Shown here: positions 11,112-30,584 of the stretch, one piece after another | How the letters are laid out: every line of letters starts with the position of its first letter | Position numbering within the stretch: the first letter of the stretch is position 1 | Virus record (IMG/VR): IMGVR_UViG_3300029554_000001 | Length of the DNA: 64,000 nt | DNA from: a virus | Direction: 5' to 3' (one strand) | The notes under the pieces: model-generated | Database searches by the model: none | Told to the model about the DNA's origin: nothing | The model's input: the letters and a program-made list of their open reading frames with translations, nothing else | Translations under genes and position numbers: made by a program

Positions 11112-11192
11112 TTAGACTTCCATGAAGCCAGTCAAGACAATCACAGAATAATAAACATTAAATCTGTAGTTTATCTGTTTGATTTTCTACAT
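11112..11192 (-). CDS. mini-ORF A, 26 aa if TAG is read: M-Q(TAG)-KIKQINYRFNVYYSVIVLTGFMEV
   Basis: GGAGA SD 8 nt upstream of ATG-TAG; stop TAA; 65% identical to mini-ORF B2; absent from the ORF track because of TAG at codon 2. Confidence 0.6.
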
Positions 11193-11268
11193 GGTCTTTC
11201 ATCTCCTTTCTTCCTTAAGACAAGGGTTTCATTTATATGAACAGCTTACGGGGCTGGAGTTTTAGACA

Positions 11269-11290
11269 GGAACAGGATTATTCCTGTTCC
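11269..11290. terminator. hairpin GGAACAGGA-tta-TTCCTGTTCC with the gene's stop codon in its loop; T-run on the + strand
   Basis: Overlaps the TAA of 11278..11742; followed on the + strand by TTTTCTTTTT, so it could end the rightward antisense RNA and/or the leftward gene. Confidence 0.5.
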
Positions 11291-11742
11291 TTTTCTTTTT
11301 CTTTGTAAGGCTTAAGGGGAATACGATTACGAGTAGAATATTCGCCAGTATCGTTGTCCATGAGGAATTCGTTTTCACATTCGTCACAGAAGAATTTGGT
11401 TTCAGTTTTAAAATCATCAACTCCTGTTACTCCCCAATTTCCACAATAAGGACAACGAGGTTCACGATACTGACCAAAGTGAATATCTTTCTGATACTCT
11501 TCAGACCGAGGTTCACTCCAAACCTTGACAGAGAAGGTATTGCCAGACTTGTCATCAGGGTCAATCTCTGCCATACAGATATCCTGTTCAACATCCTGAC
11601 CATCACGGACAAAGACGATGTTTACACCATGATATCCTTCCTCTTGCTCGCAATAAATTCTAAATTGACCATTAGGAGTATCAACGAAAGCATGAGTGAA
11701 GCCATTAATCGTGCTCAAACCAATCTTGTTGTACTGTTTCAT
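11278..11742 (-). CDS. hypothetical protein with C-terminal zinc ribbon
   Basis: ORF track frame; ATG 11742 follows GAAGGAG; CPYCG...CDEC. Confidence 0.65.
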   Translation of the reverse strand: MKQYNKIGLSTINGFTHAFVDTPNGQFRIYCEQEEGYHGVNIVFVRDGQDVEQDICMAEIDPDDKSGNTFSVKVWSEPRSEEYQKDIHFGQYREPRCPYCGNWGVTGVDDFKTETKFFCDECENEFLMDNDTGEYSTRNRIPLKPYKEKEKEQE

Positions 11743-11827
11743 AATATAAATCTCCTTCAATTAAAAATAATTTTTTAAAAAACTCTTGACAATATGAGCA
11801 AGTAAGATTGTAGACCTACCTACTTTT

Positions 11828-12376
11828 TTACCAGCCGTAAACATTGCAAACTTGTTTACCAATAGCTCGGGTATACTTGGTAATATCTTTGGGAGTTGCT
11901 TTACCATGATACAATTTCCAACAGAAATTATCAAGCTGGTCAGAAGAGATTTCAGGTTTCACTTCCCTATATAAAGTGTAGTTTGTTCCGTCATGATGAG
12001 TTTGCATAGAGCGAAGATTGTTGTGAGAATCAACCCACCACTTACCATACTCACTACCCATTTTGAAGTTAAGACAGGCTTTAATATTATGCTCATCGAG
12101 AAGAGTATATCCCATTCTACGCCCATTCCAAAGACCAACATCAGCAATCTCGATGATACGACCTTCTGTGGAAATATCGAGGTTACATATTTCATCCTTA
12201 AAGTACATATCATTAAGGTCTAACATCTCTTCATGGAACTTATATTCTTCCCACTCAGAGTAATCAACTCCACATTCATCAAGTCTTTCCTTGATGTCAT
12301 CAATCCAATCATCGAGGTTCAGGTCGTAGTTGCTCCAAACGATACGAGAATTGCTTTTATTATTCTTGGTAGCCAT
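11828..12376 (-). CDS. hypothetical protein
   Basis: ORF track frame; start moved to ATG 12376 (MATKNN), which follows AAAGGAA and clears the upstream stop at 12438. Confidence 0.6.
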   Translation of the reverse strand: MATKNNKSNSRIVWSNYDLNLDDWIDDIKERLDECGVDYSEWEEYKFHEEMLDLNDMYFKDEICNLDISTEGRIIEIADVGLWNGRRMGYTLLDEHNIKACLNFKMGSEYGKWWVDSHNNLRSMQTHHDGTNYTLYREVKPEISSDQLDNFCWKLYHGKATPKDITKYTRAIGKQVCNVYGW

Positions 12377-12437
12377 AATCATAATTCCTTTCTTTTTTAT
12401 CATAATTAGAATGTTTTGATATAGAAAAAGCTGGAGA

Positions 12438-12989
12438 TTATATCCCAGCAAATCCTTTATAAGTTTCAACAATCTTGTTTTTTTCTTCAATGATGTCCTT
12501 AGTTGCTTTTTTTATACTGTAAATAAGATTGTCTCTCAATGTAGGATAGATTTGATATTCATCCCATTTAGCAAGCCAACCATCTTTATCTTCAAGCAAA
12601 GGTTCGGGACAGCATTCAGGAGAAGCATTAAGTGCAATAGAGTCAGTATAACTACCACTTCTCCAAGTGATATAATAACAACCACCCTGTTTGCTAATTG
12701 CGACACTTTCATCATTACCATAATCTCTGTAATAATGAGCATAAAGATTTGTTCTTGAAAAAAGATTGGCTTCTTCAGCGATTTTTACCAAAGAGAGAAT
12801 CTGATTAACAACTACAGTCCACTTAGCTCTACCGATTGCTTCTGTACGAGGAATGTAATATTCCTTAGTATTTTCATGAACAGTCTTAGCATCCTGATAA
12901 CGCTGAAGAAGTTCCATCATTTCGGTATCTTCGGTTTCTTCGCAAGAAATGGTGACGGTCATGCCCTTGTAAGTATTAGTGTTAGTCAT
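12438..12989 (-). CDS. hypothetical protein, tandem paralogue of 13056..13631
   Basis: ORF track; shares MTNT.TY..MTVT..C.E.EDTEMMEL and KDGWL.KWD.Y.IY with its neighbour. Confidence 0.7.
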   Translation of the reverse strand: MTNTNTYKGMTVTISCEETEDTEMMELLQRYQDAKTVHENTKEYYIPRTEAIGRAKWTVVVNQILSLVKIAEEANLFSRTNLYAHYYRDYGNDESVAISKQGGCYYITWRSGSYTDSIALNASPECCPEPLLEDKDGWLAKWDEYQIYPTLRDNLIYSIKKATKDIIEEKNKIVETYKGFAGI

Positions 12990-13055
12990 AGTTATGTTTC
13001 CTTTCTTTTTAAGTTGAAGTGTGAATAGGTGCTTAGTATATAAGAAAACTGGGGA

Positions 13056-13631
13056 TTATTCCCCAGTAATCTCAGAATAATTTTCTTGGATGGAACGAAT
13101 TCTATCCTCGTCAACTTTAATTCTGCGCTCAATTTCTTTCATAAGAGCAGAACGGAAAAGATTATAAATGTTATAATCATCCCATTTAACGAGCCAACCA
13201 TCTTTGTCCTCACCCCATTCAGAAGAATAATACTCTTCATCAGGATTTAAGAAACAGGTACTTGCGATACCCCCGTTTATTGAGCACTTAAGGAAGTAGC
13301 CTTTGTCTTTACCAACGGAGCTATAAGAAAGCCACATGCGGCAACGTTCACCAGTATCGTCCCTACAAAAAGAAATTCTCAAGAAATTATCAATCGTACC
13401 CCTCATATTGAAACTTGTAGCTGTCTCACACAACCCGAGAAGCTGATTGCAAATTTCAGTCCATTTAGCAGAACCAATAGCTTTAATACGAGGAAGGTAA
13501 AATTCCTCAGTGCGCGAGAGTGTAGCCTTAGTGTCATTCATCTTTTTAATGAGTTCCATCATTTCGGTGTCTTCATTCTCCTTGCAAGTAACAGTAACGG
13601 TCATGTTCTCATAAGTCTTAGTGTTAGTCAT
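13056..13631 (-). CDS. hypothetical protein, tandem paralogue of 12438..12989
   Basis: ORF track; see the paralogue. Confidence 0.7.
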   Translation of the reverse strand: MTNTKTYENMTVTVTCKENEDTEMMELIKKMNDTKATLSRTEEFYLPRIKAIGSAKWTEICNQLLGLCETATSFNMRGTIDNFLRISFCRDDTGERCRMWLSYSSVGKDKGYFLKCSINGGIASTCFLNPDEEYYSSEWGEDKDGWLVKWDDYNIYNLFRSALMKEIERRIKVDEDRIRSIQENYSEITGE

Positions 13632-13704
13632 AATACAACCCTTTCTCCCCGTATAGCCGTTAGGTCAGCTTAAATATTAGTTGCTTGTTGTTGCTTAAGG
13701 TTAA

Positions 13705-15321
13705 TTAGTCACGAGGAGTAACACGAACTTTGAGCTTGTTTTTCTTGGCATACTCACAAATAGCTTTGTACTCGTCCTCAGTGATACTACGGTTGGAAGC
13801 TCCTCTTGCCTGAACAATAGCTTCGTTTTCAATTTCAATAGTAACAAGAGACTTGTCAGTATCTTTAGTCTTACGAAGTAAAACAATCAGACAATTTCTC
13901 TTGATTATTCTGCTCAGGTAACTATACACACAATGATTCAACTCAGAACCTTCGCGTTTAACATCATCTGCATTCTTAGGACGAACAATACTGTATGTCT
14001 TATCCTCTGTAACAAAAGGCTTGAAATCTTTATAAGCCTTTTCAAACATCTCAGCCTGTTCCTCGGTAAGCTTGATTTCATAGTTGCGAGAAGTGATATC
14101 ATGAGTCTGCTTAAGGTAAGAGCTGTAAAGAGTAGGCTTGATATCCATGGAAACGCACATATCAAGATAATCACGAAGTTCGCCCATAAACGAGTTTAAA
14201 CTCTTAAAACCTTGGTTGACAGCCTCTTCACAAACATAATCCATAAACTTACCAAAAGTATAGAACTGATAGAATTTGGAATTTCTATAAGAAGTATAAT
14301 TCCTAAGATAAGCAGATAGAGTGCTAGTGAAAACATTTCCACCATACCCACCAATCTGGACATGGTTGAATTGAAATTCTTCGTCCCAATACTTAGCTTT
14401 TTCAATGATATCAAACCATTCCTGATTCGTGTAATGGCAGAAATCCTCTAAAGTTTGTCCACCGTTGTAACCATAATACTGAGTATCCTCGTCTTTCTTA
14501 AAAGCGGAACCAACAATAGACTGCAAATTCATCCAATCATCAAGAATGTTTCTGTCATTGGCTTCTTTATACTCTGCCTTGGTAAGATGAACAAGTTTGT
14601 AAACAGGTTCAGCAGTTTCAATCTTAAGACTAAGAAGAGCGTTTTGAATAGATTTGGGAGCAGTACGGAAGATGATTTCAGCAGATTTATTTCTACTTAA
14701 TGCGAATCTCAATTCTCTGAAAGTATAGTTAACGCCAATATTTTCAACGGGAATATCCCAAACTTGAGAGATAAAAGAAACTGCACTGTCACCCATTCCA
14801 GCTTCATAAACAGGAGCATTACCATCACTAACAGGTTTTGCATTAGGTTCAAGAATAGGAATTAACTGTTCACCATCCATGATAAAGTTGCAAGAGGAAT
14901 TGTTGGTGGCAATTCTATATCTGTAATGACGAGATACAATAGCACCAAGAGGGAAGCAATAGCCAACATTGACCCAGAAATCACCGCCTTTCAAATTAAT
15001 TTCTTTAATGATAAAAGTGTCGGGTAAAAGACAGTCACGATTGACAGGAGCACCAGTGAATAAATCAAAATACCACTGAAAATCAGAACGGTTCGAACTG
15101 TAATGAACAATGACTTTCTTTCCAAGAGGAGTAAAATCACTATTATAGCGATTGTTCTGAACCTTGGTCATTTCAACTCTTGCTTCTTCAAGCTCATCAG
15201 AGAGCTTTTTAATACGAGCGTTAATTTCTTTCTCTTTGGCAGAGATTTCATAGTTGTTGAAAAAGCTCTCATAATCATGAATGGAGGACTTGTAGAAGTT
15301 AGCAATAGCAGTGTTAGACAT
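13705..15321 (-). CDS. PcfJ-like domain protein
   Basis: C-terminal LNHCVYSYLSRIIKRNCLIVLLRK...VTIEIENEAIVQARGASN matches the PcfJ-type H-C-V..Y / TIE / Q.RG pattern; ATG 15321 follows AAAGGAAAA. Confidence 0.6.
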   Translation of the reverse strand: MSNTAIANFYKSSIHDYESFFNNYEISAKEKEINARIKKLSDELEEARVEMTKVQNNRYNSDFTPLGKKVIVHYSSNRSDFQWYFDLFTGAPVNRDCLLPDTFIIKEINLKGGDFWVNVGYCFPLGAIVSRHYRYRIATNNSSCNFIMDGEQLIPILEPNAKPVSDGNAPVYEAGMGDSAVSFISQVWDIPVENIGVNYTFRELRFALSRNKSAEIIFRTAPKSIQNALLSLKIETAEPVYKLVHLTKAEYKEANDRNILDDWMNLQSIVGSAFKKDEDTQYYGYNGGQTLEDFCHYTNQEWFDIIEKAKYWDEEFQFNHVQIGGYGGNVFTSTLSAYLRNYTSYRNSKFYQFYTFGKFMDYVCEEAVNQGFKSLNSFMGELRDYLDMCVSMDIKPTLYSSYLKQTHDITSRNYEIKLTEEQAEMFEKAYKDFKPFVTEDKTYSIVRPKNADDVKREGSELNHCVYSYLSRIIKRNCLIVLLRKTKDTDKSLVTIEIENEAIVQARGASNRSITEDEYKAICEYAKKNKLKVRVTPRD

Positions 15322-15386
15322 AATCAATTTTCCTTTCTTAATTAGACAAAATGTTTGTAGTGACTATATATTAAAGGTAGGAGGGA

Positions 15387-16061
15387 TTAACCCTCCTTTA
15401 CCTTTTTACAGAAAGCTTTGTATTTCTGACTATTGAGGACCCCAAGAATCTTATCTTTAGCTTCGGGCTGACTCTTATAGTAGTCGGAGTTATAGCCAAA
15501 GTGTCTCTGATAAATCATATCAGGATTTTTCTCCAGTAATGCTTCAAGAGGACAATACAGGCTTACAGTAACTTTTTCGCCGTTGTACTTGTAAGGCATT
15601 TTGATATAGATATCACATGAACCATAGCCGCACGTAGGAACATAAGCACTGAATTCGTATTTCTTCAGATAAGGATAAGCCATGAAAATTGCCTCTCTGA
15701 AACTCTTAATAAGATGGGCATTTTGATATTCAAGAGGGACAACATACTGGTAAGCATCTTCGTAATGGTCTCTTTTCCAACCATTACGTTCTTCTGTGAA
15801 TCTAAAATTTCTCTTGATTTCAGGGAGACGTGTGTAATGGGTTTCATAGTAGCTAACATTATTCGAAGATATAGGGATATACTTAATACCACAGACATCT
15901 TTCATTTTGATTTTCTCAGTCACAAGCCAGAGAAGGACATGGGTAGGGAAGCACTTTTCCCACACATCCCATTCTTGGATGAATTTCTTAGCTCTTTCGT
16001 ATCCAACAAATTCATCATTGCGATAAGTACCCTGATATTCAGCATAAATAGCCATAGTCAT
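15387..16061 (-). CDS. hypothetical protein
   Basis: ORF track; AAAGGAA SD. Confidence 0.65.
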   Translation of the reverse strand: MTMAIYAEYQGTYRNDEFVGYERAKKFIQEWDVWEKCFPTHVLLWLVTEKIKMKDVCGIKYIPISSNNVSYYETHYTRLPEIKRNFRFTEERNGWKRDHYEDAYQYVVPLEYQNAHLIKSFREAIFMAYPYLKKYEFSAYVPTCGYGSCDIYIKMPYKYNGEKVTVSLYCPLEALLEKNPDMIYQRHFGYNSDYYKSQPEAKDKILGVLNSQKYKAFCKKVKEG

Positions 16062-16131
16062 AATTCCTTTCTTTTCAATAGATGTGTTGTTGTTTATGTT
16101 TGTTATTTATATTTGAGTTTTGTTCTCTTTT

Positions 16132-16335
16132 TTAATAAGTGGGATTAGCTTTAGAAAGTTCCCAAGATTCTTTTTTCAGCAATGCATGAGCTTCTTCATA
16201 AGCAGTAAAAAATTCTTGGTCAGTTTTGTAATCACCCATGCTATGAACCATTTCTCTGATATAGTCATCCATGAAGGGAATAGATGCTTCAAAATCGACC
16301 AAAGCGCCACTGAGATTTTCTACTAAAGTAATCAT
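16132..16335 (-). CDS. hypothetical protein
   Basis: ORF track frame; ATG 16335 follows AAAGGAG. Confidence 0.6.
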   Translation of the reverse strand: MITLVENLSGALVDFEASIPFMDDYIREMVHSMGDYKTDQEFFTAYEEAHALLKKESWELSKANPTY

Positions 16336-16354
16336 TGTTATATCTCCTTTCTTT

Positions 16355-16555
16355 TTAAGTGTCAATAGCCAAATTCTTTACACAATATCCATACTTTTCT
16401 TCAAGGTTTTCACAAATAGAGTCTTCTATATCTCTTAAAAAACTGGTACAAAGGTCATCGTACTCAAGGTCAACTTCAGATGGAAGGCTTTCACTGGGGA
16501 TATCGTTTTCATCAGTGTCCCATTCAATATTGGTAACGTGAATAATCATATTCAA
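16355..16555 (-). CDS. hypothetical acidic protein
   Basis: ORF track; AAAGGAG SD. Confidence 0.65.
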   Translation of the reverse strand: MNMIIHVTNIEWDTDENDIPSESLPSEVDLEYDDLCTSFLRDIEDSICENLEEKYGYCVKNLAIDT

Positions 16556-16623
16556 TCTCCTTTCTTAAATGAGAGGGAGAGATATTTCGCTCTCCCTCAT
16601 GTTGATTGTTTGAACAGTTGAAA

Positions 16624-17115
16624 TTAAACAGAGGGTCTACCAAGCCATTCAATGTTGTCTGCCTTGATAGTCATACAACCAGTCTCATTGGAAGACGTGA
16701 AATAACTATCAGGAACAAAACCAGTCTTACGAAGGTCTTCCTTAGAAATAGGCTTCCCATTGAGATAGTGCTGGACCTTGGGCTTATTGGGCGTATCGTA
16801 CACACGGAGATACTCATTATACTCACCCTTCTTATTGGTGTGGCAGATGATACGATTGCTGTTATCCTTCCACTGACCCCAAGGAAGCTTAGAAGCAGTA
16901 TCAATAGGGATATTCTTCTCAGCAGCCTTTGCGATTGCCTTCTTGGTATGCTTGTAGTTGACACCGATACGGTAAGTACCGATAACACGCTTAAGAACAG
17001 AGACACCAGCTTTACGACCGAGAGCAGAGAGAGTCACATCGGAAACGTAAGCCATCTTGAAGAACTGACCAGCGGGGATAGAGTTGACCTTGAGGTTGAA
17101 ATAAGTGTTATTCAT
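16624..17115 (-). CDS. hypothetical protein
   Basis: ORF track; AAAGGAAA SD; higher GC and strong codon bias suggest high expression. Confidence 0.7.
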   Translation of the reverse strand: MNNTYFNLKVNSIPAGQFFKMAYVSDVTLSALGRKAGVSVLKRVIGTYRIGVNYKHTKKAIAKAAEKNIPIDTASKLPWGQWKDNSNRIICHTNKKGEYNEYLRVYDTPNKPKVQHYLNGKPISKEDLRKTGFVPDSYFTSSNETGCMTIKADNIEWLGRPSV

Positions 17116-17194
17116 GATATTTCCTTTCTGCCCGTAAACCCGATAGCACAGGATAATAAATTGGTTTATTGTGGATTGTTATGTGAGAAAACGA

Positions 17195-17497
17195 TTAGAT
17201 GTCAATTTCGATGATTTTACCATCCCAGTTATCGTGATTGTAAGTCTCAGCCCATGCAGATGTATCATTGAAGTTGTTTTCATCATCAAGAATATCATCA
17301 TCTACAAGAGACTCAATAGCTTCTTCCAGCTCGTCCATCGTAGAGATGTTGCAAAAGTTATAATTATCTACATCAATATGCCGACAAGCTTCGATAAACA
17401 GCTCAAATAAATGAATCTGAGCTTTCTCCATAGTGTCGAAGAACTCAGGTTCACCAATTTCACGCTCACAGCAATCAATAACCATAAACTTCTTCAT
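17195..17497 (-). CDS. hypothetical acidic protein, paralogue of 24918..25220
   Basis: ORF track; about 65% identity to 24918..25220 over the full 100 aa. Confidence 0.7.
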   Translation of the reverse strand: MKKFMVIDCCEREIGEPEFFDTMEKAQIHLFELFIEACRHIDVDNYNFCNISTMDELEEAIESLVDDDILDDENNFNDTSAWAETYNHDNWDGKIIEIDI

Positions 17498-17536
17498 AAT
17501 TTTTATTTCCTTTCTTCAATCAAATGTTGTTTGTTG

Positions 17537-19851: not shown

Positions 19852-19880
19852 TTGACAAGATTGATGTTATGTGTTAATAT
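19852..19880 (+). promoter_or_regulatory. consensus promoter TTGACA-17-TAATAT pointing against the leftward block (cassette B)
   Basis: TTGACA 19852-19857, TGT-TAATAT 19875-19880, followed by the long hairpin 19881-19931. Confidence 0.55.
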
Positions 19881-19952
19881 ATGTATAGATGATAAGAAGA
19901 ATCCTATACTTCTTACTTACCATCTATACATCTTCGTAATTAATGTGTGAGA

Positions 19953-20024
19953 TTAATTACGGTTATAGATAATCATTATCTACATGAGATTGTAGAAATA
20001 ATTAACGTAGAAGATTCTCTACAT
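19953..20024 (-). CDS. mini-ORF B1, 23 aa: M-Q(TAG)-RIFYVNYFYNLM-Q(TAG)-IMIIYNRN
   Basis: GGAGGAAAGGAG upstream of ATG-TAG; C-terminus IYNRN shared with C and D. Confidence 0.55.
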
Positions 20025-20147
20025 GGCTTTCAACTCCTTTCCTCCTTAGACAAGGGACAATTATATAACAGTTTATAGGAACTGATTATATTAGAATAAG
20101 AGAATCGCCTATACAATTCTCTTAGTGAATTATTTTAGTTTAAACTA

Positions 20148-20228
20148 TTAAAGTTCGTATGCTCCGCCAAGAACAATAGAACAATAATAAACATTAAACT
20201 AATAGTTTATTTGTTTGACTGTCTACAT
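20148..20228 (-). CDS. mini-ORF B2, 26 aa: M-Q(TAG)-TVKQINY-Q(TAG)-FNVYYCSIVLGGAYEL
   Basis: AAGGAGA SD then ATG-TAG; paralogue of mini-ORF A. Confidence 0.6.
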
Positions 20229-20292
20229 AGACATTCTCCTTTCCATTTAGCACTAATATATAAACAGTTTATAGGAACTGATTATATCAAGA

Positions 20293-20318
20293 AAGAGCAG
20301 GATTTTATTCCTGCTCTT
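20293..20318. terminator. hairpin AAGAGCAGG-attttatt-CCTGCTCTT with the gene's stop codon in its loop
   Basis: Overlaps the TAA of 20305..20484; T-run on the + strand; same design as 11269-11290. Confidence 0.5.
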
Positions 20319-20484
20319 TTTCTATTGTGTACAAATACTGCTTTCGCTTTTCTTTGTACTGCTTATTGATTTTGTACCGATAATTGCCATGAGTCTTACG
20401 CTGGATTCCTTCACAGCGGTCATAGTACATACCATCGTACTGGGGATACTCTGTGATAGCATTGTTAGGTGTACGTTTAGACAT
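20305..20484 (-). CDS. hypothetical basic 59-aa protein
   Basis: ORF track frame; ATG 20484 is 8 nt after GGAGGG and overlaps the end of 20477..22816. Confidence 0.55.
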   Translation of the reverse strand: MSKRTPNNAITEYPQYDGMYYDRCEGIQRKTHGNYRYKINKQYKEKRKQYLYTIEKEQE

Positions 20485-24141: not shown

Positions 24142-24156
24142 ATTAATTGTTCTCCT

Positions 24157-24342: not shown

Positions 24343-24388
24343 AATTTTAATTCCTTTCTTAATTAAAATGCAAAATATATTTTAACCT

Positions 24389-24715
24389 TTAGAAGTTAAG
24401 AGCAGGGACAGTAAGCAGATACATATTCCAGTAATCCCAATTTTTGTTAAGTTCTTTTAAAAGATGAGAAGGGCTGATTCTCCAATCAGGAGATGTAGGG
24501 ACACCATTATCTTCCAATTGGTCAACAAGTTTAATCTTGTTAAGAAGAAGAAATTCTTCCAGTTTCTCCTTATTGATTTTATTGAAGCCATCTTTCTGAA
24601 TACATACAGCCCACATAATATTCTCCACAACTGTTCTATGGTTGGAAGAATAAACAGGGTAGAAATTGACTCCATCATGGGCAACGAGGACGTAGTTATA
24701 AGTCTGATTAGTCAT
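24389..24715 (-). CDS. hypothetical protein
   Basis: ORF track; GAGGAGGA SD. Confidence 0.65.
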   Translation of the reverse strand: MTNQTYNYVLVAHDGVNFYPVYSSNHRTVVENIMWAVCIQKDGFNKINKEKLEEFLLLNKIKLVDQLEDNGVPTSPDWRISPSHLLKELNKNWDYWNMYLLTVPALNF

Positions 24716-24717
24716 AG

Positions 24718-24882
24718 TTAAAAATCCTCCTCTTCCTGAGCGTCAGTAGCTTCAAAATCATCAGACCAAGTAATATCTTCTTTACCATAGCCCTCGACCT
24801 TGGCAAAAGCATCATTTTCAGATTCGGCTTCAACCTGAACAAAGCCATAACGAGCAAACGTGACATTGTAAATCTTTTTCAT
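24718..24882 (-). CDS. hypothetical acidic 54-aa protein (below the ORF-track cutoff)
   Basis: ATG 24882 follows AAAGGAAA; MKKIYNVTFARYGFVQVEAESENDAFAK...; stop TAA 2 nt before the next ATG. Confidence 0.55.
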   Translation of the reverse strand: MKKIYNVTFARYGFVQVEAESENDAFAKVEGYGKEDITWSDDFEATDAQEEEDF

Positions 24883-24917
24883 AGTATTATTTCCTTTCTT
24901 AATTCAGATGTTTAAAA

Positions 24918-25220
24918 TTAGATTTCGATTTCAAAGATTTTGCCATCCCAGTTATCATGGTTAGTAGTTTCAGCCCATGCACAAGTACCCTCGAAGTTGT
25001 TCTCGTCATCGAAAATGTCATTATCAATGAGAGAATCAATAGCTTTTTCAAGCTCTTCTTTTGTAGTGACAACATACTTATTATAATCATCTGCATCAAG
25101 ATGCCGACAAGCCTCAAGAAACAAATTGAACAAGTGAATCTGAGCTTTCTCCATGGTATCAAAGAAATAAGGATGACCAATCTCACGTTCGCAAGTATCA
25201 GTGACCATAAACTTCTTCAT
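24918..25220 (-). CDS. hypothetical acidic protein, paralogue of 17195..17497
   Basis: ORF track; see the paralogue. Confidence 0.7.
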   Translation of the reverse strand: MKKFMVTDTCEREIGHPYFFDTMEKAQIHLFNLFLEACRHLDADDYNKYVVTTKEELEKAIDSLIDNDIFDDENNFEGTCAWAETTNHDNWDGKIFEIEI

Positions 25221-25311
25221 AATTTTCTTTCCTTTCTTAAATCACAAATGTTGTTTAGTTCTCATCAATGCAAAAGCAACTTGTATCAGAATCAACTTTA
25301 TTATTGGTTAT

Positions 25312-25340
25312 ATTATACTTTCCTTTCTTAATGGTGTCAA
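25312..25340 (-). promoter_or_regulatory. leftward promoter TTGACA-17-TATAAT
   Basis: Minus strand TTGACA (25340-25335), 17 bp, TATAAT (25317-25312); back-to-back with the rightward promoter at 25369. Confidence 0.65.
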
Positions 25341-25368
25341 GTATTTAAAAAGAAATTTTACAAACTAC

Positions 25369-25397
25369 TTGACAAGTGTTGTGATTTGTGTTATATT
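25369..25397 (+). promoter_or_regulatory. consensus promoter TTGACA-17-TATATT pointing against the leftward block (cassette C)
   Basis: TTGACA 25369-25374, TGT-TATATT 25392-25397, followed by hairpin 25398-25441. Confidence 0.55.
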
Positions 25398-25466
25398 ACA
25401 CTCATCAAGCAAGGTATGTAACTTTTACTTGATGAGTGTAGGTTTTACAATACCTGTAACTGTGGA

Positions 25467-25538
25467 TTAGTTACGATGGTACACGATACGAACGACCGAG
25501 ATTTGTCTATCCATATCAACATGTAAAATTTTCTACAT
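25467..25538 (-). CDS. mini-ORF C, 23 aa: M-Q(TAG)-KILHVDMDRQISVVRIVYHRN
   Basis: AAGGAGA SD then ATG-TAG; stop TAA. Confidence 0.5.
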
Positions 25539-25637
25539 ATTAATTTCTCCTTTCGTGAGTAATTATGTAAACAGGCTTTACAGGAGTCTGGTGTCTTAAG
25601 TAAGACTGGTAGTTAGTAGCTACCAGTCTTTTCTCTT

Positions 25638-26570
25638 TTACTTCTTATAAACCATAAAGGTGAGAAGATAATCACGAATCTTTTCAGCGGGATGTCCTTC
25701 ATGCTCTTCAATCTTGTCCTGAGCAACACGAACAAACTCATCACAGCTCTTATACTGCTTAAGGTTCAGCAGAAAATAGTTGAATGCTTTGGTATCCTCA
25801 CAGTGCTTGTAGCAAGCAGAAATTCCTGCCAACATGCGCTGAGTATAAACCATATCATCCTTCCAACCAGTCCCCTGAAGAACAGCGAACACAAAACGAA
25901 GAGCGTTTTCACCATCGCGTTTAACAATACGATACAGCTCTTCAATTGCATTGATATTGTTATAGCGGTTAATGGTGCTATTGCGATTGGTCTTAACAGT
26001 CAGACCAAATTCCTTTGTGACCTGATTGATAATTACTGCTGTAGGCTTCTTGGCACAAAGTTCAGCTTTATATCTTTCATAGCCACGAAGATTGGTCTTA
26101 CCCTCGTTCTGAGTAGCAAACAAATCTGCTTCTTCTTCCAGAGTAAGATTGATAAATACTTTGCAAGTGATAGCATAGATGGGGAAGCCTTTACTCTGCA
26201 TATAAAGCAGAGCACTCAAGGTATGAGCCCCATCCATAAGAAACAGATGCCAAGTATTACCAACTTTACGAATAGAAGCCGCTTTAATTTCAACCTTGTT
26301 GATATTAAAGTTGTTGGTAATTTTAGCTACTTCATAGTTTTTGGGTTCGCGCTGATAGTGCAAGTCAATTTCAGGCATAAAAAGAGGAATGTCTCTAATA
26401 GCCCAGTTACGACCATCTTCTCTCTTTTCAATCTCCCTTTCCACAGAGAGCTTAAAGGCATAAACGGTCTTGGACTGTTCATTGGTGATTGCTTTGGGCT
26501 TAAGTGCATCGAACAGGACTTCACTGACGGACTTTTCGTTCTTGATGTTGGTGAGATTAATCTTCTTCAT
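25638..26570 (-). CDS. ParB/sulfiredoxin-like nuclease-domain protein (tentative)
   Basis: HYQREP followed by LFLMDGAHTLSAL resembles the ParB N-terminal DGxHR-type core; AAAGGAA SD. Confidence 0.5.
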   Translation of the reverse strand: MKKINLTNIKNEKSVSEVLFDALKPKAITNEQSKTVYAFKLSVEREIEKREDGRNWAIRDIPLFMPEIDLHYQREPKNYEVAKITNNFNINKVEIKAASIRKVGNTWHLFLMDGAHTLSALLYMQSKGFPIYAITCKVFINLTLEEEADLFATQNEGKTNLRGYERYKAELCAKKPTAVIINQVTKEFGLTVKTNRNSTINRYNNINAIEELYRIVKRDGENALRFVFAVLQGTGWKDDMVYTQRMLAGISACYKHCEDTKAFNYFLLNLKQYKSCDEFVRVAQDKIEEHEGHPAEKIRDYLLTFMVYKK

Positions 26571-26613
26571 GATTCTAAATTCCTTTCAAGTTAAAAAAGT
26601 TTGTAGTTATCAC

Positions 26614-26642
26614 TTGACAGATATTATCAAGTGTGCTAAGAT
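26614..26642 (+). promoter_or_regulatory. consensus promoter TTGACA-17-TAAGAT pointing against the leftward block (cassette D)
   Basis: TTGACA 26614-26619, TAAGAT 26637-26642, followed by hairpin 26646-26677. Confidence 0.5.
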
Positions 26643-26693
26643 AAACACAAGTAGAAAGCCTACACTCTCTACTTGTGATGCAATTAATACGGA

Positions 26694-26765
26694 TTAATTA
26701 CGATTGTAAATGATGAAGACTATTATTATAGACCAATAATAGTCAACTGCTAAGATTTTCTACAT
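26694..26765 (-). CDS. mini-ORF D, 23 aa: M-Q(TAG)-KILAVDYYWSIIIVFIIYNRN
   Basis: AAAGGAG SD then ATG-TAG; hydrophobic core; stop TAA. Confidence 0.6.
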
Positions 26766-26892
26766 AGCAAAACTCCTTTCTAATTTAATAATACATTAAT
26801 TCATTGTAGGCTAAATTAATGTGCGAGTGAATAAGTTGGGCTTAAACACTCTATTGAGGGATGGAAGTTATTTTCCATCCCTCTAACAATGT

Positions 26893-27087
26893 TTAAACTC
26901 TTTCAACCTTATAAGGCTTGCAAGCAACAACATCGAAATTGTTTACAAGCCAGTCAGGTTTGGTTTCTTTAGTATTAAGGAATTTACAAACAATGTTTGC
27001 AAGCACTTCACTGTTAAATACAGTTTTTTCCTTCATACTCATTGTAACTGTTACGGATTTTCCGTATTTGTTTGTAATCTTAAACAT
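26893..27087 (-). CDS. hypothetical 64-aa protein
   Basis: ORF track frame; ATG 27087 follows GGAGGTG and overlaps the upstream stop. Confidence 0.55.
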   Translation of the reverse strand: MFKITNKYGKSVTVTMSMKEKTVFNSEVLANIVCKFLNTKETKPDWLVNNFDVVACKPYKVERV

Positions 27088-27394
27088 GCCACACCTCCGT
27101 CTTGATGCCCTTACCGTTATAATAACGACGAGCACCATAATTGGCTCTGTCACTGAAGCACTCAGCACAAGGAATTAATTCCTTACGCTTTCCCTCCTTG
27201 ATTTCCTTGAGTGAAAGATTGAAGCACTGTTCAACCTCACACTTATCACACATCTTACAGGATTTACCCTTGCAAATGTTTTCGCAGAAGTTGTTCTTAA
27301 CTTTGCAGAGATGCTTAATACCCCAAGAGGAATTCATCTCAGCTAAGGTCTGGTCGAGAGTGTAGTTATGACCTATAACACTAATCTTTTTCAT
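27080..27394 (-). CDS. Cys-rich hypothetical protein
   Basis: ORF track; AAAGGAG SD; CENICKGKSCKMCDKCEVEQC. Confidence 0.65.
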   Translation of the reverse strand: MKKISVIGHNYTLDQTLAEMNSSWGIKHLCKVKNNFCENICKGKSCKMCDKCEVEQCFNLSLKEIKEGKRKELIPCAECFSDRANYGARRYYNGKGIKTEVWHV

Positions 27395-27457
27395 TTTACT
27401 TTGACTCCTTTCAAGTCTGTATTAAATTTAATTTTAAATTTGTCTTAAGCTATATGG

Positions 27458-27790
27458 TTAGAAACAAATACGTTTCTTTTTGATTTTGGTAAGCATCCAA
27501 CACCAAGGATTTCCAAAATCATCTTCAAGAGGAGTAACCTTAATGGTTACAAGCACCTCAGTACTAAGATGCTCAAGGATATAATCCAAATTCTTAAGAG
27601 AGAAAACATATCTTTCTTTTGTATCATCTTTAGTGCTTTTTGCGCACCATTTAATGATTTCTTTCAAGCCCGAATCAATCAGGCAGTTCAGGTTCCCATA
27701 AGTGTCAAGCGTTTTATTAAGAGAAGGTGCTTCTAAATGGGTAGGATTGTTGGTGAGAGAGCGAACGGTGTTTTTTAATTTCTTGGACAT
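27458..27790 (-). CDS. hypothetical protein
   Basis: ORF track; AAAGGAAA SD. Confidence 0.65.
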   Translation of the reverse strand: MSKKLKNTVRSLTNNPTHLEAPSLNKTLDTYGNLNCLIDSGLKEIIKWCAKSTKDDTKERYVFSLKNLDYILEHLSTEVLVTIKVTPLEDDFGNPWCWMLTKIKKKRICF

Positions 27791-27826
27791 TTTCTTTATT
27801 TCCTTTCTTTTGTTGATTATTGATAT

Positions 27827-28018
27827 TTACACTTGCTTAAGATACTTAAGGTTTAATTCTAATTTGGAATCCATTGTTAAGCCATTTTCGCGCTTGATTC
27901 TGCCACACAAGTTATTCAAAGCTTGTTTCTCAGAAGAAGCCGTGGTATAACCAGAAAAATGGCAATAATAGTTATACCATCTGGTTACGGGACCATCGTA
28001 GTAATATTTGAGTTTCAT
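27827..28018 (-). CDS. hypothetical 63-aa protein
   Basis: ORF track frame; ATG 28018 follows AAAGGAGGTG. Confidence 0.6.
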   Translation of the reverse strand: MKLKYYYDGPVTRWYNYYCHFSGYTTASSEKQALNNLCGRIKRENGLTMDSKLELNLKYLKQV

Positions 28019-28037
28019 ATATACACCTCCTTTCAAC

Positions 28038-28283
28038 TCAAATAAAATTGAAAACTTTACACTCTTCATGGACATAGCCTCCAAGAACTTCAGGACAGGA
28101 CTGGAAATAACCAGATGCATCCTGAATGTGGATGAGAATGGTATCGTCCATATTTAATGAACCTTTGCGCACTTTTGCTCTAAGCGAGCGACGAATTCGT
28201 TCCCAAATGTTGCACTTTTCTTCGAATACATCATAGATGACTTTGCCATCCTTTTTGACATATCCACTATACCATCTTGTCAT
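28038..28283 (-). CDS. hypothetical 81-aa protein
   Basis: ORF track frame; start moved to ATG 28283 (MTRWYSG); the upstream part of the track ORF overlaps the cassette E promoter and hairpin. Confidence 0.55.
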   Translation of the reverse strand: MTRWYSGYVKKDGKVIYDVFEEKCNIWERIRRSLRAKVRKGSLNMDDTILIHIQDASGYFQSCPEVLGGYVHEECKVFNFI

Positions 28284-28289
28284 AACTAC

Positions 28290-28318
28290 TTGACACCCTC
28301 CTTTTGTTGTGTTATAAT
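28290..28318 (+). promoter_or_regulatory. consensus promoter TTGACA-17-TATAAT pointing against the leftward block (cassette E)
   Basis: TTGACA 28290-28295, TGT-TATAAT 28313-28318, followed by hairpin 28323-28360. Confidence 0.55.
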
Positions 28319-28366
28319 ACCTAATAAGAAAAGTGGTTGACCAATCCACTCTTCTTATTAAATTGA

Positions 28367-28522
28367 TTAGTCTAAGTCTAACTTAGATATATCTATCTGG
28401 AAGAATTCAATCAGCTATTCAACACTTAGGTGTTGCATGTACCAATTAAATTCAAACTCAGAAGTGATATACTACTTCAGAATAGAACCAATCTTTGCTT
28501 TATTACTAAGACTATCCTACAT
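28367..28522 (-). CDS. mini-ORF E, 51 aa with four TAG codons: M-Q(TAG)-DSLSNKAKIGSILK-Q-YITSEFEFNWYMQHLSVE-Q-LIEFFQIDISKLDLD
   Basis: AAAGGAGG SD then ATG-TAG; hydrophilic and unlike the other nine; open only if TAG is read. Confidence 0.4.
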
Positions 28523-28663
28523 GAATTCCTCCTTTCTTTTAACTCGTTAGTGTTGTGACTAACTTGTTATTCGTTATCTTATTGGTCAGATAAGATAGAG
28601 TCTTAGCTGCAACTAAGCACTCTATGAAGGGTAGGAGCATATGTTCCTACCCTTTAACAATGC

Positions 28664-29005
28664 TTAGATGTTATCCCACTGATTAGTGATGAAATTAAAG
28701 CATCGAACAGTTCCACCAATCTTTTTCTCCCAGCGGGGGTTGTTTTTGTTCAATGTATAAGTGGCAAGGCGACTTTTAGCAGCCGTGACAATAATATCAT
28801 ACTGACCGAGTTCCTGAAGAGACTTGATATAGTTCATGAGTTTGACATCATTTTCAAATTCGATGTCAATTGTTCTGGAAGCACTGACAATATCAGTGCA
28901 ATGGTCATCCACACCTTCAGGTTTCCACCCCTGTTCAAAGTGGCTGATAATAGAATCAATATCATAGATGCAGATGCGTTTAACAAACTTAACAGTGTAA
29001 TTCAT
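28664..29005 (-). CDS. hypothetical protein
   Basis: ORF track; AAAGGAAAA SD. Confidence 0.65.
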   Translation of the reverse strand: MNYTVKFVKRICIYDIDSIISHFEQGWKPEGVDDHCTDIVSASRTIDIEFENDVKLMNYIKSLQELGQYDIIVTAAKSRLATYTLNKNNPRWEKKIGGTVRCFNFITNQWDNI

Positions 29006-29034
29006 TTCTTTTTTCCTTTCTGTTTATAAAAGTC

Positions 29035-29063
29035 TTGACAAGCACAATTTCATGTGTTATACT
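29035..29063 (+). promoter_or_regulatory. consensus promoter TTGACA-17-TATACT pointing against the leftward block (cassette F)
   Basis: TTGACA 29035-29040, TGT-TATACT 29058-29063, followed by hairpin 29073-29104; possible end at hairpin GGAGAGAT/ATCTCTCC plus T-rich tail near 29257-29290. Confidence 0.55.
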
Positions 29064-29122
29064 TGTTATTAGAATAAGAGAAGTGCCTACACACCTCTCT
29101 TATTAATAAGCTTTTATTCTTC

Positions 29123-29197
29123 TTAGAAATTATAGTTCTTTAGAATTACAACTACAACGACGTTTAAAGAATAATTGACTGAAATAATCTTCTTCAT
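29123..29197 (-). CDS. mini-ORF F, 24 aa, the only copy without TAG: MKKIISVNYSLNVVVVVILKNYNF
   Basis: AAGGAGG SD; codon 2 is AAG; differs from G2 and H mostly at third codon positions. Confidence 0.65.
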   Translation of the reverse strand: MKKIISVNYSLNVVVVVILKNYNF

Positions 29198-29326
29198 TGT
29201 TTTACCTCCTTAAGAAGATAAAAGCAAACAAGGATGTAGGTCCTTATTCACTACAGAGGAGAGATGTGGGGATATCTCTCCTTCTGTTATATTTGAGTAG
29301 TTTAACGACTTGCTCAGGTCGAGAGG

Positions 29327-29734
29327 TTAGTTCTGATAATCGTCAGAAACTAATACCCATTCTTCCCCATTACTATCAATAAGATGAATGGTTGTTCTAT
29401 CCTCACTGATAGTTACATTCTGAAGATTAGAGAACCAATCCTCAGTTGTTGTGTAGCTATCCTCAACTCCTTTGTTATAACCAGCGTTATATGCACCAGT
29501 TACGTCTTCGTTAGTGAAGACTTCTGCTGGTGCACTTTTACTGTAATCAATATGGTCAAGAATAACAGCGATTCCAATCGCAAGGACAACTACCAGAATA
29601 AACATAGCTCTGGGATTCATGCTCTTATTTTGAGCTATTGCTTCAAGATTAATAACAAGACCGTACACAATCATGATAGCAACAATAGCAATAGCAACAA
29701 TGGTAACATTGGTAATATTGATAAACATCTTCAT
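29327..29734 (-). CDS. membrane protein (two TM helices)
   Basis: ORF track; the SD spacing fits the second ATG (29728) better; NITNVTIVAIAIVAIMIVYGLVI and MFILVVVLAIGIAVIL. Confidence 0.65.
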   Translation of the reverse strand: MKMFINITNVTIVAIAIVAIMIVYGLVINLEAIAQNKSMNPRAMFILVVVLAIGIAVILDHIDYSKSAPAEVFTNEDVTGAYNAGYNKGVEDSYTTTEDWFSNLQNVTISEDRTTIHLIDSNGEEWVLVSDDYQN

Positions 29735-29762
29735 TTCCTTTCTGGTTTTTTACGTCTTTTCC

Positions 29763-29791
29763 TTGACAAACAATTATTTATGTGTTATTAT
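29763..29791 (+). promoter_or_regulatory. consensus promoter TTGACA-17-TATTAT pointing against the leftward block (cassette G)
   Basis: TTGACA 29763-29768, TGT-TATTAT 29786-29791, followed by hairpin 29802-29819. Confidence 0.55.
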
Positions 29792-29837
29792 AATGATGAG
29801 AAGGTTGCCTACACAACCTCCTTAATGCATAATTATC

Positions 29838-29912
29838 TTAGAAGTTGTGATTCTTCAAGATAATCATACTAACTATGCCGAGAACATAGTCAATAAATGT
29901 TATTTTCTACAT
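29838..29912 (-). CDS. mini-ORF G1, 24 aa: M-Q(TAG)-KITFIDYVLGIVSMIILKNHNF
   Basis: AAGGTGA SD then ATG-TAG; stop TAA. Confidence 0.6.
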
Positions 29913-30056
29913 TTTATCACCTTTTCATAATTTAATACTTAATTATAAATTATGTAGGTAATCTATAATTAAGCAGACTGCTTATTGCGACTAAGCACTC
30001 TATAAGATAGAGGAAGATACTCTTATCTTCCTCTACCCTAACAATGCTTATTATGC

Positions 30057-30131
30057 TCAGAAGTTATAATTCTTCAGTATGGCAACTGTTACAACATTAA
30101 GAGCATAATTTACGGAAATCGTTTTCTACAT
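30057..30131 (-). CDS. mini-ORF G2, 24 aa: M-Q(TAG)-KTISVNYALNVVTVAILKNYNF
   Basis: AAAGGAGG SD then ATG-TAG; stop TGA. Confidence 0.6.
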
Positions 30132-30219
30132 GATGATTTCCTCCTTTCCGAGTGCGATTTGGATTACTAAGCACTCTATTAAGCCCACCATCAATTACGA
30201 TGATGGGCTTTAACAATGC

Positions 30220-30390
30220 TCAGATAGGGATACAAATAACATATCCATCATCCAAGAATCGGGGATAAAGCTTATTCTTATTGAGAAGCTTATCTCCAAT
30301 CTCTTTTGCTTCCTCCTCATTAGAGGCAGACACGAATACTGTATCACAACCACTAATGATGGAAGTGATATATTTGACTTTGTATGTCAT
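30220..30390 (-). CDS. hypothetical 56-aa protein (below the ORF-track cutoff)
   Basis: ATG 30390 follows AAAGGAATAAAAG; MTYKVKYITSIISGCDTVFVSASNEEEAKEIGDKLL...; stop TGA. Confidence 0.55.
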   Translation of the reverse strand: MTYKVKYITSIISGCDTVFVSASNEEEAKEIGDKLLNKNKLYPRFLDDGYVICIPI

Positions 30391-30417
30391 TTTCTTTTAT
30401 TCCTTTCTATAAAAGTC

Positions 30418-30446
30418 TTGACAAATACAACTTTATATGTTATACT
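30418..30446 (+). promoter_or_regulatory. consensus promoter TTGACA-17-TATACT pointing against the leftward block (cassette H)
   Basis: TTGACA 30418-30423, TGT-TATACT 30441-30446, hairpin 30457-30486; candidate end at GGGACACTT/GAAGTGTCCC plus TTTTGCTTTGTTT (30650-30686). Confidence 0.6.
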
Positions 30447-30509
30447 TGTTGTTGTAGTAAGAAAGATGCCTATACACCTTTCTTACAAAAAGAGTGATTA
30501 TTAACCTTA

Positions 30510-30584
30510 TCAGAAGTTATAATTCTTTAGGACGAGAATCGTAACAACATTTAAAGTATAATCTATTGTAATTATCTTCTACAT
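30510..30584 (-). CDS. mini-ORF H, 24 aa: M-Q(TAG)-KIITIDYTLNVVTILVLKNYNF
   Basis: AGGAGG SD then ATG-TAG; stop TGA. Confidence 0.6.

Follow-up and report, generated by a model that had tools for sequence, protein, structure and literature searches.

Repeated micro-protein cassettes with amber second codons and predicted antisense RNAs in the early gene block of a TAG-recoding phage

In this study, a 64,000-nt stretch of viral DNA (IMG/VR record IMGVR_UViG_3300029554_000001; the whole stretch is referred to below as the window) was analysed with a focus on ten mini open reading frames (mini-ORFs) found on the minus strand at positions 11112-30584. Each of them is preceded by a strong, AAAGGAGG-like Shine-Dalgarno (SD) sequence; nine start with ATG-TAG and one with ATG-AAG. 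With a probability of about one half, we propose that these are micro-protein genes, kept off by antisense RNA while the host polymerase is active and by the TAG codon until the genetic code is switched. An initial annotation of this DNA had given the number and the positions of the ATG-TAG starts correctly, but it had taken all of these units for paralogues. One of them (ORF X) is not, and TAG thus occupies codon 2 in 8 of 9 paralogues (23-26 aa) and, in addition, in an unrelated 51-aa ORF.

The mini-ORFs and their family

The following mini-ORFs were identified (q stands for TAG):

30510-30584, minus strand: mini-ORF A, MqKIITIDYTLNVVTILVLKNYNF; TAG at codon 2
30057-30131, minus strand: mini-ORF B, MqKTISVNYALNVVTVAILKNYNF; no promoter of its own, no complementary loops, directly upstream of C
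29838-29912, minus strand: mini-ORF C, MqKITFIDYVLGIVSMIILKNHNF
29123-29197, minus strand: mini-ORF F, MKKIISVNYSLNVVVVVILKNYNF; AAG at codon 2, zero TAG in the ORF
28367-28522, minus strand: ORF X, 51 aa, not a paralogue; TAG at codons 2, 17 and 36, same cassette layout
26694-26765, minus strand: mini-ORF D, MqKILAVDYYWSIIIVFIIYNRN
25467-25538, minus strand: mini-ORF E, MqKILHVDMDRQISVVRIVYHRN
20148-20228, minus strand: mini-ORF G, MqTVKQINYqFNVYYCSIVLGGAYEL; two TAGs, no promoter of its own, directly upstream of H
19953-20024, minus strand: mini-ORF H, MqRIFYVNYFYNLMqIMIIYNRN; two TAGs
11112-11192, minus strand: mini-ORF I, MqKIKQINYRFNVYYSVIVLTGFMEV

A peptide profile search recognized exactly nine family members in the window. 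Mini-ORF F, whose AAG at codon 2 was seen at 29197, is one of them, and its description as a paralogue with a sense codon at this position was accurate, as was the statement that every unit has a strong SD. The family was found in all relatives examined and comprises 84 distinct units with 77 distinct ORF sequences, which fall into 29 clusters when grouped at 80% identity. All peptides of one subfamily have the same length (23, 24 or 26 aa), and the C-termini (…NRN, …NYNF) are conserved. In the window, the cassettes (the mini-ORFs with their flanking elements) appear as the direct-repeat families D2, D11, D15 and D16.

The protein encoded by ORF X has only 51-aa relatives without a name, all from the same clade, and in the DNA of all four relatives carrying X the codons 2, 17 and 36 are TAG. 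More distant relatives of this protein (P0011, P0018 and P0020-P0022) have glutamic acid at position 2, presumably encoded by GAG, one change away from TAG, and therefore the amber start of X is not universal.

On the minus strand of the window, SD and ATG are followed by TAG at 10 sites, by TAA at 2 and by TGA at 0. The tenth TAG site belongs to a four-codon ORF (ATG TAG ATT CCT TGA; 5293-5307, minus strand) with a very strong SD (GAAAGGAGG), located right after the gene 5904-5323 and followed by a second SD-like string. A further SD-led ATG-TAG ORF with two TAGs (498-578, plus strand; MqIHFGqGVQFLDSCVKFLVWYEIKA) is unrelated to the mini-ORF family, and neither complementary loops nor a convergent promoter were seen in its surroundings.

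TAG is read as glutamine and avoided by early genes

The window is composed of a minus-strand block (4.3-36.4 kb) tiled by SD-led genes, in which the cassettes are located, and a subsequent plus-strand block (36.8-61.4 kb); these are referred to as the early and late genes, respectively. The 53 early genes (8628 codons) end with TAA (47) or TGA (6) and never with TAG, which agrees with the initial annotation. The 217 glutamine (Gln) codons of this block are CAA (86), CAG (130) and TAG (1). The block had been described as free of TAG, and this holds for the stops and nearly so for in-frame codons, with one codon (32561-32559) departing from it. This sole in-frame TAG of an ordinary early gene (32559-32561, minus strand) lies inside ORF 33173-32346, which in the standard code would end at 204 aa and not at 275; in relatives the codon is TGG (Trp) or CGA (Arg).

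The rightward genes do require TAG decoding, as had been predicted, since many in-frame TAGs are present at 36.8-61.4 kb, including four in the endolysin gene. A comparison with the relatives revealed the meaning of this codon. Late-gene TAGs of the window that are changed in relatives align mostly to CAA (40) and CAG (31), i.e. at 71 of 98 sites, and in the reverse comparison (TAGs of the relatives against the window) CAG was found at 23 and CAA at 12 of 59 late-gene sites. Internal Gln sites of the mini-ORFs also switch among TAG, CAA and CAG, and codon 2 reads CAG in one orthologue. Because TAG exchanges with CAA and CAG, it is concluded that the phage reads TAG as Gln. The share of TAG among Gln codons is 89% in the mini-ORFs, 22% (39/177) in the late genes and 0.5% in the early genes; TAG is therefore a sense codon in the late genes that is avoided by the early ones.

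Purifying selection on the peptides and preference for TAG

The differences among mini-ORFs are mostly synonymous (variable sites at codon positions 1/2/3: 47/32/89), and the ratio of nonsynonymous to synonymous differences per site (pN/pS) amounts to 0.19 among close pairs and to 0.22 among pairs of intermediate distance. This pattern shows that the mini-ORFs are real coding sequences, under purifying selection at the peptide level beyond the TAG.

Although synonymous sites have reached saturation among the paralogue clusters (pS 0.82), TAG persists at codon 2, which points to its selection: TAG is used by 20 of the 21 clusters with Gln at this codon (binomial p ~1e-12, relative to the 22% share in late genes). 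The internal Gln codons of the mini-ORFs are TAG in 12 of 15 cases, and at the cluster level 32 TAG stand against 4 CAA/CAG (Fisher p = 3e-14 against late genes). At least one TAG is present in 26 of the 29 sequence clusters, as TAG is located further in where codon 2 is AGT, AAA or ACA, and zero TAG is found only in three AAG-type (F-type) clusters. The persistence of TAG despite saturation, together with the internal codons, upholds the proposal that TAG at this position was selected rather than drifted.

Viral contigs outside the clade were scanned for SD-ATG-TAG-AAA-AT, which was not a proper survey of recoded clades, and mostly short chance ORFs were obtained. The scan also returned a recurrent and nearly unchanged 35-codon string starting with ATG TAG AAA AT (MqKIRYLQLDLIHRVVLFYHS…) in many unrelated viral and giant-virus contigs (loci L047, L048, L054, L055 and ~20 others). 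This string is probably a conserved sequence in the wrong frame and not a gene.

Predicted antisense promoters and terminators

In the initial annotation, the mini-ORF stops were placed 6-26 nt in front of a conserved hairpin, which is close to the 7-28 nt measured here. Three other parts of the cassette had been missed, namely an antisense promoter, an antisense-oriented terminator and complementary loops. The best sigma-70-type promoter matches of the region are eight plus-strand sites that oppose the genes, each of them 39-77 nt past a mini-ORF stop:

30418-30446, plus strand: predicted antisense promoter of A, TTGACA-17-TATACT with a TG-extended -10; a 5' hairpin follows directly
29763-29791, plus strand: predicted antisense promoter of C (possibly also of B)
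29035-29063, plus strand: predicted antisense promoter of F
28290-28318, plus strand: predicted antisense promoter of X, 12/12 consensus match; overlaps the SD of the next minus-strand gene
26614-26642, plus strand: predicted antisense promoter of D
25369-25397, plus strand: predicted antisense promoter of E
19852-19880, plus strand: predicted antisense promoter of H; the transcript would cross G too
11022-11050, plus strand: predicted antisense promoter of I

All eight plus-strand consensus promoters within the minus-strand block thus belong to cassettes. Within the whole family, a promoter of this kind (consensus TTGACA-17-TGnTATAAT) was found 35-90 nt after the stop in 73 of 84 distinct units, where ~1 would be expected by chance. 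In 71 of these 73 promoters the -10 is TGn-extended, and the hexamers are constant while the spacers vary. A 5' hairpin directly after the promoter is a feature of the cassette promoters only, as none follows those at 1070, 2816, 36815 and 43472 or the minus-strand promoters.

Candidate terminators for the antisense transcripts were found at the following positions:

30650-30673, plus strand: predicted antisense terminator for A, hairpin with U-tract; predicted RNA ~30453-30683
29256-29283, plus strand: predicted antisense terminator for F
25602-25630, plus strand: predicted antisense terminator for E
20290-20321, plus strand: predicted antisense terminator past G, where the transcript started at the H promoter would end (~440 nt)
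11268-11291, plus strand: predicted antisense terminator for I

Among 65 units, the GC-rich hairpin just beyond the mini-ORF SD has an antisense-side T-tract in 44 and a sense-side T-tract in 13. The predicted antisense RNA has a median length of 232 nt and spans both the SD and the ORF. Units B and G are without a promoter of their own but have C and H, respectively, immediately downstream, and therefore one antisense transcript may cover two ORFs.

A sense-strand sigma-70 promoter for the mini-ORF was considered and rejected, as only -10-like strings were present after the upstream hairpin, with an impossible -35 spacing. A second intergenic repeat of the minus strand consists of CATTGTTAAAG, a variable GC-rich hairpin and then ATAGAGTGCTTAGT. 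It is located at 28612-28625, 29990-30003, 30166-30179 and 26841-26854, upstream of the cassettes B, C, X and D, where the other cassettes have a simple antisense-oriented terminator. This repeat could be a phage-specific promoter or terminator.

Flanking hairpins with complementary loops

The hairpin upstream of the SD carries a hexaloop of the type CCYRYA, and its exact complement is found in the hairpin after the stop. The loops in the window are listed below:

30622-30627, minus strand: upstream loop of A, CCTATA
30469-30474, minus strand: downstream loop of A, TATAGG, exact complement of the upstream loop
29953-29958, minus strand: upstream loop of C, CCTACA
29808-29813, minus strand: downstream loop of C, TGTAGG
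29235-29240, minus strand: upstream loop of F, CCTACA
29086-29091, minus strand: downstream loop of F, TGTAGG
28582-28587, minus strand: upstream loop of X, GACCAA
28339-28344, minus strand: downstream loop of X, TTGGTC, complement of GACCAA
26805-26810, minus strand: upstream loop of D, CCTACA
26659-26664, minus strand: downstream loop of D, TGTAGG
25579-25584, minus strand: upstream loop of E, CCTGTA; complement TACAGG in the window at 25453-25458, in relatives in the loop of a large downstream hairpin
20270-20275, minus strand: upstream loop of G, CCTATA; partner TATAGG at 20108-20113
20074-20079, minus strand: upstream loop of H, CCTATA; partner TATAGG at 19903-19908
11247-11252, minus strand: upstream loop of I, CCCGTA; partner in the window TACTGG at 11069-11074 (one mismatch), in relatives TACGGG

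When the hexamers of both loops were extracted independently, they proved complementary in all 28 unambiguous cluster representatives, which covered five hexamers. Among all units the family loops are CCTATA, CCTACA, CCTGTA, CCCGTA, CCTGCA and CCCACA, which together with GACCAA/TTGGTC of X gives seven co-varying hexamers; at each of three of the six loop positions, two types of Watson-Crick pair occur. The stems differ among cassettes and between both hairpins of one cassette while the loops match, which argues for loop-loop base-pairing and not for a protein site common to the hairpins or for terminal inverted repeats. An inverted-repeat or miniature inverted-repeat transposable element (MITE) origin of the hexamers was rejected because only the 6-nt loops match and the stems are unrelated. 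Since the sense and antisense RNAs are mirror images, the contact may be assigned to the message, to the antisense RNA or to both.

Sequestration of the SD in the sense RNA was inconsistent across minimum free energy (MFE) folds and was rejected. No covariance model of Rfam 15 matched the window at gathering score, and at E up to 1 only an unrelated chance match (at 16519) was obtained for 10.9-30.8 kb.

Relatives, host and search for lysogeny

The close relatives are IMG/VR contigs of ~155-220 kb (phages of ~215 kb), and the virus is therefore a jumbo phage. In a megablast search with 19-31 kb of the window, no match was found among GenBank phages. The strong SDs and the TTGACA/TGnTATAAT promoters point to a Firmicute host.

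A PcfJ-like early protein had no match in 185,579 species genomes, and in a search of the same genomes for the cassette pattern the sole match was a phage-looking contig of 28 kb from a metagenome-assembled genome (MAG); there is therefore no evidence of lysogeny. This contig (CAVKBM010000181.1; 28,103 bp), binned with a Bacteroidaceae MAG, carries five cassettes with the same layout as in the window. Its use of SDs and its -35/-10 promoters are atypical of Bacteroidota, so the binning is probably wrong or reflects co-abundance.

Proposed control of the micro-protein genes

According to our proposal, each cassette would be a micro-protein gene (23-26 aa, or 51 aa in the case of X) placed between early genes and held by two independent locks. 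In the standard code, a ribosome loaded at the SD would stop at TAG in codon 2 and no peptide would be made; the full peptide would appear only when TAG-to-Gln decoding by the phage is active, with further TAGs often present inside the ORF. The second lock would be set by the host-type (sigma-A/sigma-70) promoter on the opposite strand, from which transcription would run back over the ORF and SD to the terminator. The resulting ~230-nt antisense RNA would pair with the mini-ORF message, blocking or destroying it, while the antisense promoter is being used by host RNA polymerase. Through the complementary 6-nt loops, the 5' and 3' parts of either RNA could kiss, as in type I toxin mRNAs and the antisense RNAs that act on them. 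That the antisense RNA is made and represses the mini-ORF, and when expression occurs, is what we infer from the arrangement of these elements.

Locked production of the peptide until the code switch was one of two readings offered in the initial annotation, and it gains support from the decoding as Gln, the purifying selection and the TAG preference. The accompanying suggestion of a hydrophobic, toxic or lysis-related peptide found no support, because no apolar run exceeds 10 residues and several of the peptides are polar. Our guess is that the peptide acts late, as an effector whose early appearance has to be avoided, and is not a classical membrane toxin.

Several observations weigh against the proposed double control: (i) no suppressor tRNA was found in the 64-kb window nor in 38 fetched loci, and no release-factor gene in the window or any fetched locus, so that the timing of the code switch is an assumption; (ii) F-type members are without any TAG and the amber lock is therefore dispensable; (iii) G-type and B-type units have no promoter of their own, and complementary loops are absent from B-type and a few other unit types; (iv) all of the promoters, terminators and RNAs described here are predictions; (v) promoters of the same consensus type also drive TAG-containing plus-strand genes (36815 and 43472), and host-type promoters are therefore not purely early; (vi) the mini-ORF peptides had no match in Pfam and NCBIfam; and (vii) these peptides have no membrane helix, their longest apolar runs being 4-10 residues and their grand average of hydropathy (GRAVY) -0.24 to 0.88, with E, G, H and X being polar.

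Alternative explanations

The second reading of the initial annotation was that of a leader whose ribosome occupancy reports the decoding state to the next gene. Start-stop translation before the switch and read-through after it would then set the fate of the flanking early genes, acting by removal of the antisense RNA, by disruption of the kissing contact, by RNase III cleavage or by Rho polarity, and the peptide would be a by-product or an arrest peptide. Analogous leaders are known from P1 (c4/icd/ant), from tnaC and from IncB/IncI-alpha plasmids, in the last case with a leader peptide, a pseudoknot and an antisense RNA. The cassettes indeed lie between same-strand genes, 107-127 nt before the next start in 6 of 9 cases, and the upstream sense-direction terminators are weak, so that the cassettes are probably inside a polycistronic RNA. 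Moreover, the fixed subfamily lengths and conserved C-termini resemble those of arrest peptides, and the antisense promoter reaches up to, or into, the next gene's SD.

However, the downstream hairpin has no U-tract, the MFE folds reveal no alternative terminator/antiterminator pairing, and in six of the nine family cassettes an opposing promoter stands before the next start; neither the mini-ORF stop nor a structure thus overlaps a terminator or the next ribosome-binding site (RBS), as attenuation would require. The stop is mostly outside the ribosome's reach of the hairpin (7-28 nt), the long-range pairing connects both flanking loops and not the RBS of the next gene, and the sequence is not C-rich like a rut site. 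In addition, the downstream genes are mutually unrelated, and after two of the cassettes the next element is another cassette and not a gene. TAGs, which might serve as regulatory codons, are present and selected, and they are placed at codon 2, far from the structures that a stalled ribosome could mask. With so little in favour of a link to the next gene, the leader reading is considered unlikely.

Equally doubtful, if not slightly more so, is a broader version in which the cassette would be a sensor of the genetic-code state, i.e. a riboregulator whose input is the code in use. In the standard code, start-stop translation would leave the message naked. Either pairing of the antisense RNA or closure of the kissing contact would then lead to cleavage or silencing of the polycistronic early RNA at some eight places. 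With TAG decoding under way, ribosomes would traverse the mini-ORF, strip the antisense RNA and reprogramme the flanking early genes.

The function might also reside in RNA, i.e. in a plus-strand small RNA of ~230 nt that its kissing hairpins close, or in a duplex of sense and antisense RNA that serves RNase III processing and insulation, with the cassettes acting as recombination modules and the mini-ORF being secondary. Promoter, 5' hairpin and terminator orientation all fit a plus-strand RNA, and the same layout surrounds two unrelated ORFs (the family and X). Mosaic breakpoints between relatives are located at cassette edges (e.g. 30611/30384, 29224/28996 and 28322), and there is a precedent in the shuffling of small early genes by promoter-early stem-loop (PeSL) cassettes (PMC2839356). 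This explanation leaves the pN/pS of 0.2, the strong SD, the fixed ORF length and the TAG preference unaccounted for, and the promoters face away from the downstream gene, unlike those of PeSLs. We regard it as improbable.

Still less probable is a classical toxin-antitoxin (TA) system of type I, in which the peptide would be a toxin (for killing, lysis timing or plasmid-like prophage maintenance) and the antisense RNA its antitoxin. A small ORF, an overlapping cis-antisense RNA with a strong promoter, kissing hairpins, many paralogues and fast turnover are all in keeping with such a system, as are the plasmid-type neighbours (ParB-like, PcfJ and DUF932). The type I system hokW-sokW reportedly aids phage release. 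On the other hand, the peptides have no hydrophobic segment of transmembrane length and several are polar, and the 185,579 species genomes, in which one phage-like MAG contig was the sole match, gave no evidence of lysogeny. The toxin would, furthermore, be untranslatable in an uninfected host, and hence no post-segregational killing could follow unless a suppressor is present.

Finally, the absence of any gate, with TAG at codon 2 either inherited from one ancestor of these paralogues or kept at the nucleotide level (the start UGUAG can pair with CCUACA or CCUAUA loops, e.g. AUGUAG with CCUACA), is very improbable, since codon-2 TAG prevails in Gln clusters and among internal Gln codons despite the saturation of synonymous sites, most members lacking it have TAG elsewhere, the unrelated ORF X likewise starts with ATG-TAG, and the start does not co-vary with the loops CCTGTA, CCCGTA, CCTGCA and CCCACA, for which reason pairing with the upstream loop was rejected as the cause of TAG.

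Comparison with known systems

Ibs/Sib and hok/sok are type I modules with an overlapping antisense RNA. The aapA1/IsoA1 module of Helicobacter combines a 30-aa peptide with an antisense RNA, kissing loops and 5'-3' folding of the mRNA (PMC5416894). The cassettes resemble such modules in having a very small ORF (<~60 aa) behind a strong RBS of its own, a strong promoter of the constitutive type for a cis-antisense RNA (at the level of sequence), paired stem-loops able to kiss in a long-range 5'-3' contact (28/28 representatives) and many paralogous copies per genome. They differ in that their peptides are without a membrane-spanning hydrophobic helix, in their location inside early operons of a jumbo phage without a sign of lysogeny, and in the codon-2 amber, which adds a second lock tied to the genetic code. 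With neither a membrane helix nor a family match, the cassettes are described here as built like type I TA modules and not as members of them.

Preferential recoding in phages was read by Borges et al. (bioRxiv 10.1101/2021.08.26.457843) as a block on expression ahead of the code change, marking those genes for which silence is most needed, one of the examples being a homing endonuclease embedded in an early gene. The window shares with their phages the reading of TAG as Gln, the avoidance of TAG by early genes and the presence of few genes that prefer TAG far above average, and the mini-ORFs are a family that prefers the recoded stop in this sense (32 TAG vs 4 CAA/CAG). In contrast to their cases, the ORFs described here have 23-26 codons, which is below gene-caller size, with TAG right after the start, and occur in about ten copies per genome together with an antisense unit and complementary hairpins; that paper mentions none of these features. 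The initial annotation knew of no described system of this kind; recoding as a translational lock had, however, been published by Borges et al. In limited searches of the literature and in Rfam, the combination of this lock with antisense RNA, TAG right after ATG and the multi-copy cassette form were not found. Both ingredients, recoding as a lock and antisense-controlled mini-ORFs, are known already.

PeSLs of T4-type phages are repeated intergenic cassettes (PMC2839356, PMC4122927), and they resemble those of the window in combining a strong sigma-70 promoter with a stem-loop, in lying in a hyperplastic region of small genes of unknown function, and in the match between mosaic breakpoints and cassette edges. 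Here, however, transcription from all eight cassette promoters, which are on the plus strand, would proceed away from the minus-strand gene that comes next, a conserved translated mini-ORF is present inside the cassette, and there are two hairpins with complementary loops.

Two further comparisons concern translation. With the leader and antisense circuits (P1/P7 c4-icd-ant, IncB/IncI-alpha repA/repZ and tnaC) the cassettes share a ~24-30-codon ORF upstream of another gene, an antisense RNA complementary to the leader and a hairpin loop in long-range pairing. In those circuits, contact with the regulated RBS, or with a Rho or terminator site, is made by the stop of the leader or by the long-range pairing, whereas here the pairing spans the hairpins that flank the mini-ORF, and an opposing promoter precedes the next gene. 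In the host code, the cassettes look like start-stop (AUG-stop) elements, of which examples are reported for bacteria (bioRxiv 10.1101/520783) and for eukaryotes (PMC13338717), with a strong RBS followed by ATG-stop, but the frame past the stop is conserved as protein and this stop is a sense codon in the second code of the phage, which sets them apart from such elements.

Other features of the window

The GC content of the window is ~33%, and it falls to 26-28% in 32000-38000, at the junction of the two divergent blocks. A strong GC-skew switch is located near 36-37 kb, and the junction carries divergent consensus promoters at 36776 (minus strand), 36443 (minus strand) and 36815 (plus strand).

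Products of the minus-strand block include two PcfJ-like proteins, DUF932, a ParB-like DUF6551 protein, an HslV-like peptidase and many small unknown proteins. Two sets of paralogous genes were observed among them, i.e. 100-aa genes 7.7 kb apart (17194-17512 and 24917-25235) and tandem ~185-aa genes (12795-12990 and 13437-13632); the nucleotide identity of such early-block pairs is 76-81%. The plus-strand block encodes the endolysin with four in-frame TAGs, tail-like proteins and two endonucleases. The LAGLIDADG endonuclease gene (39934-40803, plus strand) follows a 671-aa gene, and the GIY-YIG endonuclease gene (49755-50570, plus strand), with five TAGs, adjoins a fragment of the terminase large subunit (50577-51614); these placements suggest intron or intein-type insertions. 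At the left end of the window, an intergenic TTGACA is followed by three tandem copies of GTCGATATATCGGTA (604-650, plus strand), which are iteron- or operator-like.

Implications

The idea of stop-codon recoding as a timer of phage gene expression has its main basis in the codon usage of lysis genes. The cassettes constitute the sharpest statistical case known to us, with tiny genes that lie in a TAG-free early block and themselves encode Gln almost only by TAG, usually right behind the ATG, and at ~250 bp each is a compact system that can be tested with reporters. The predicted antisense control in the style of type I TA modules would operate inside large phage genomes without a sign of lysogeny, and a code-based lock could be added to it. 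Standard gene callers overlook an entire class of phage micro-proteins, and should these peptides prove to target the host or lysis, few known phage effectors would be smaller.

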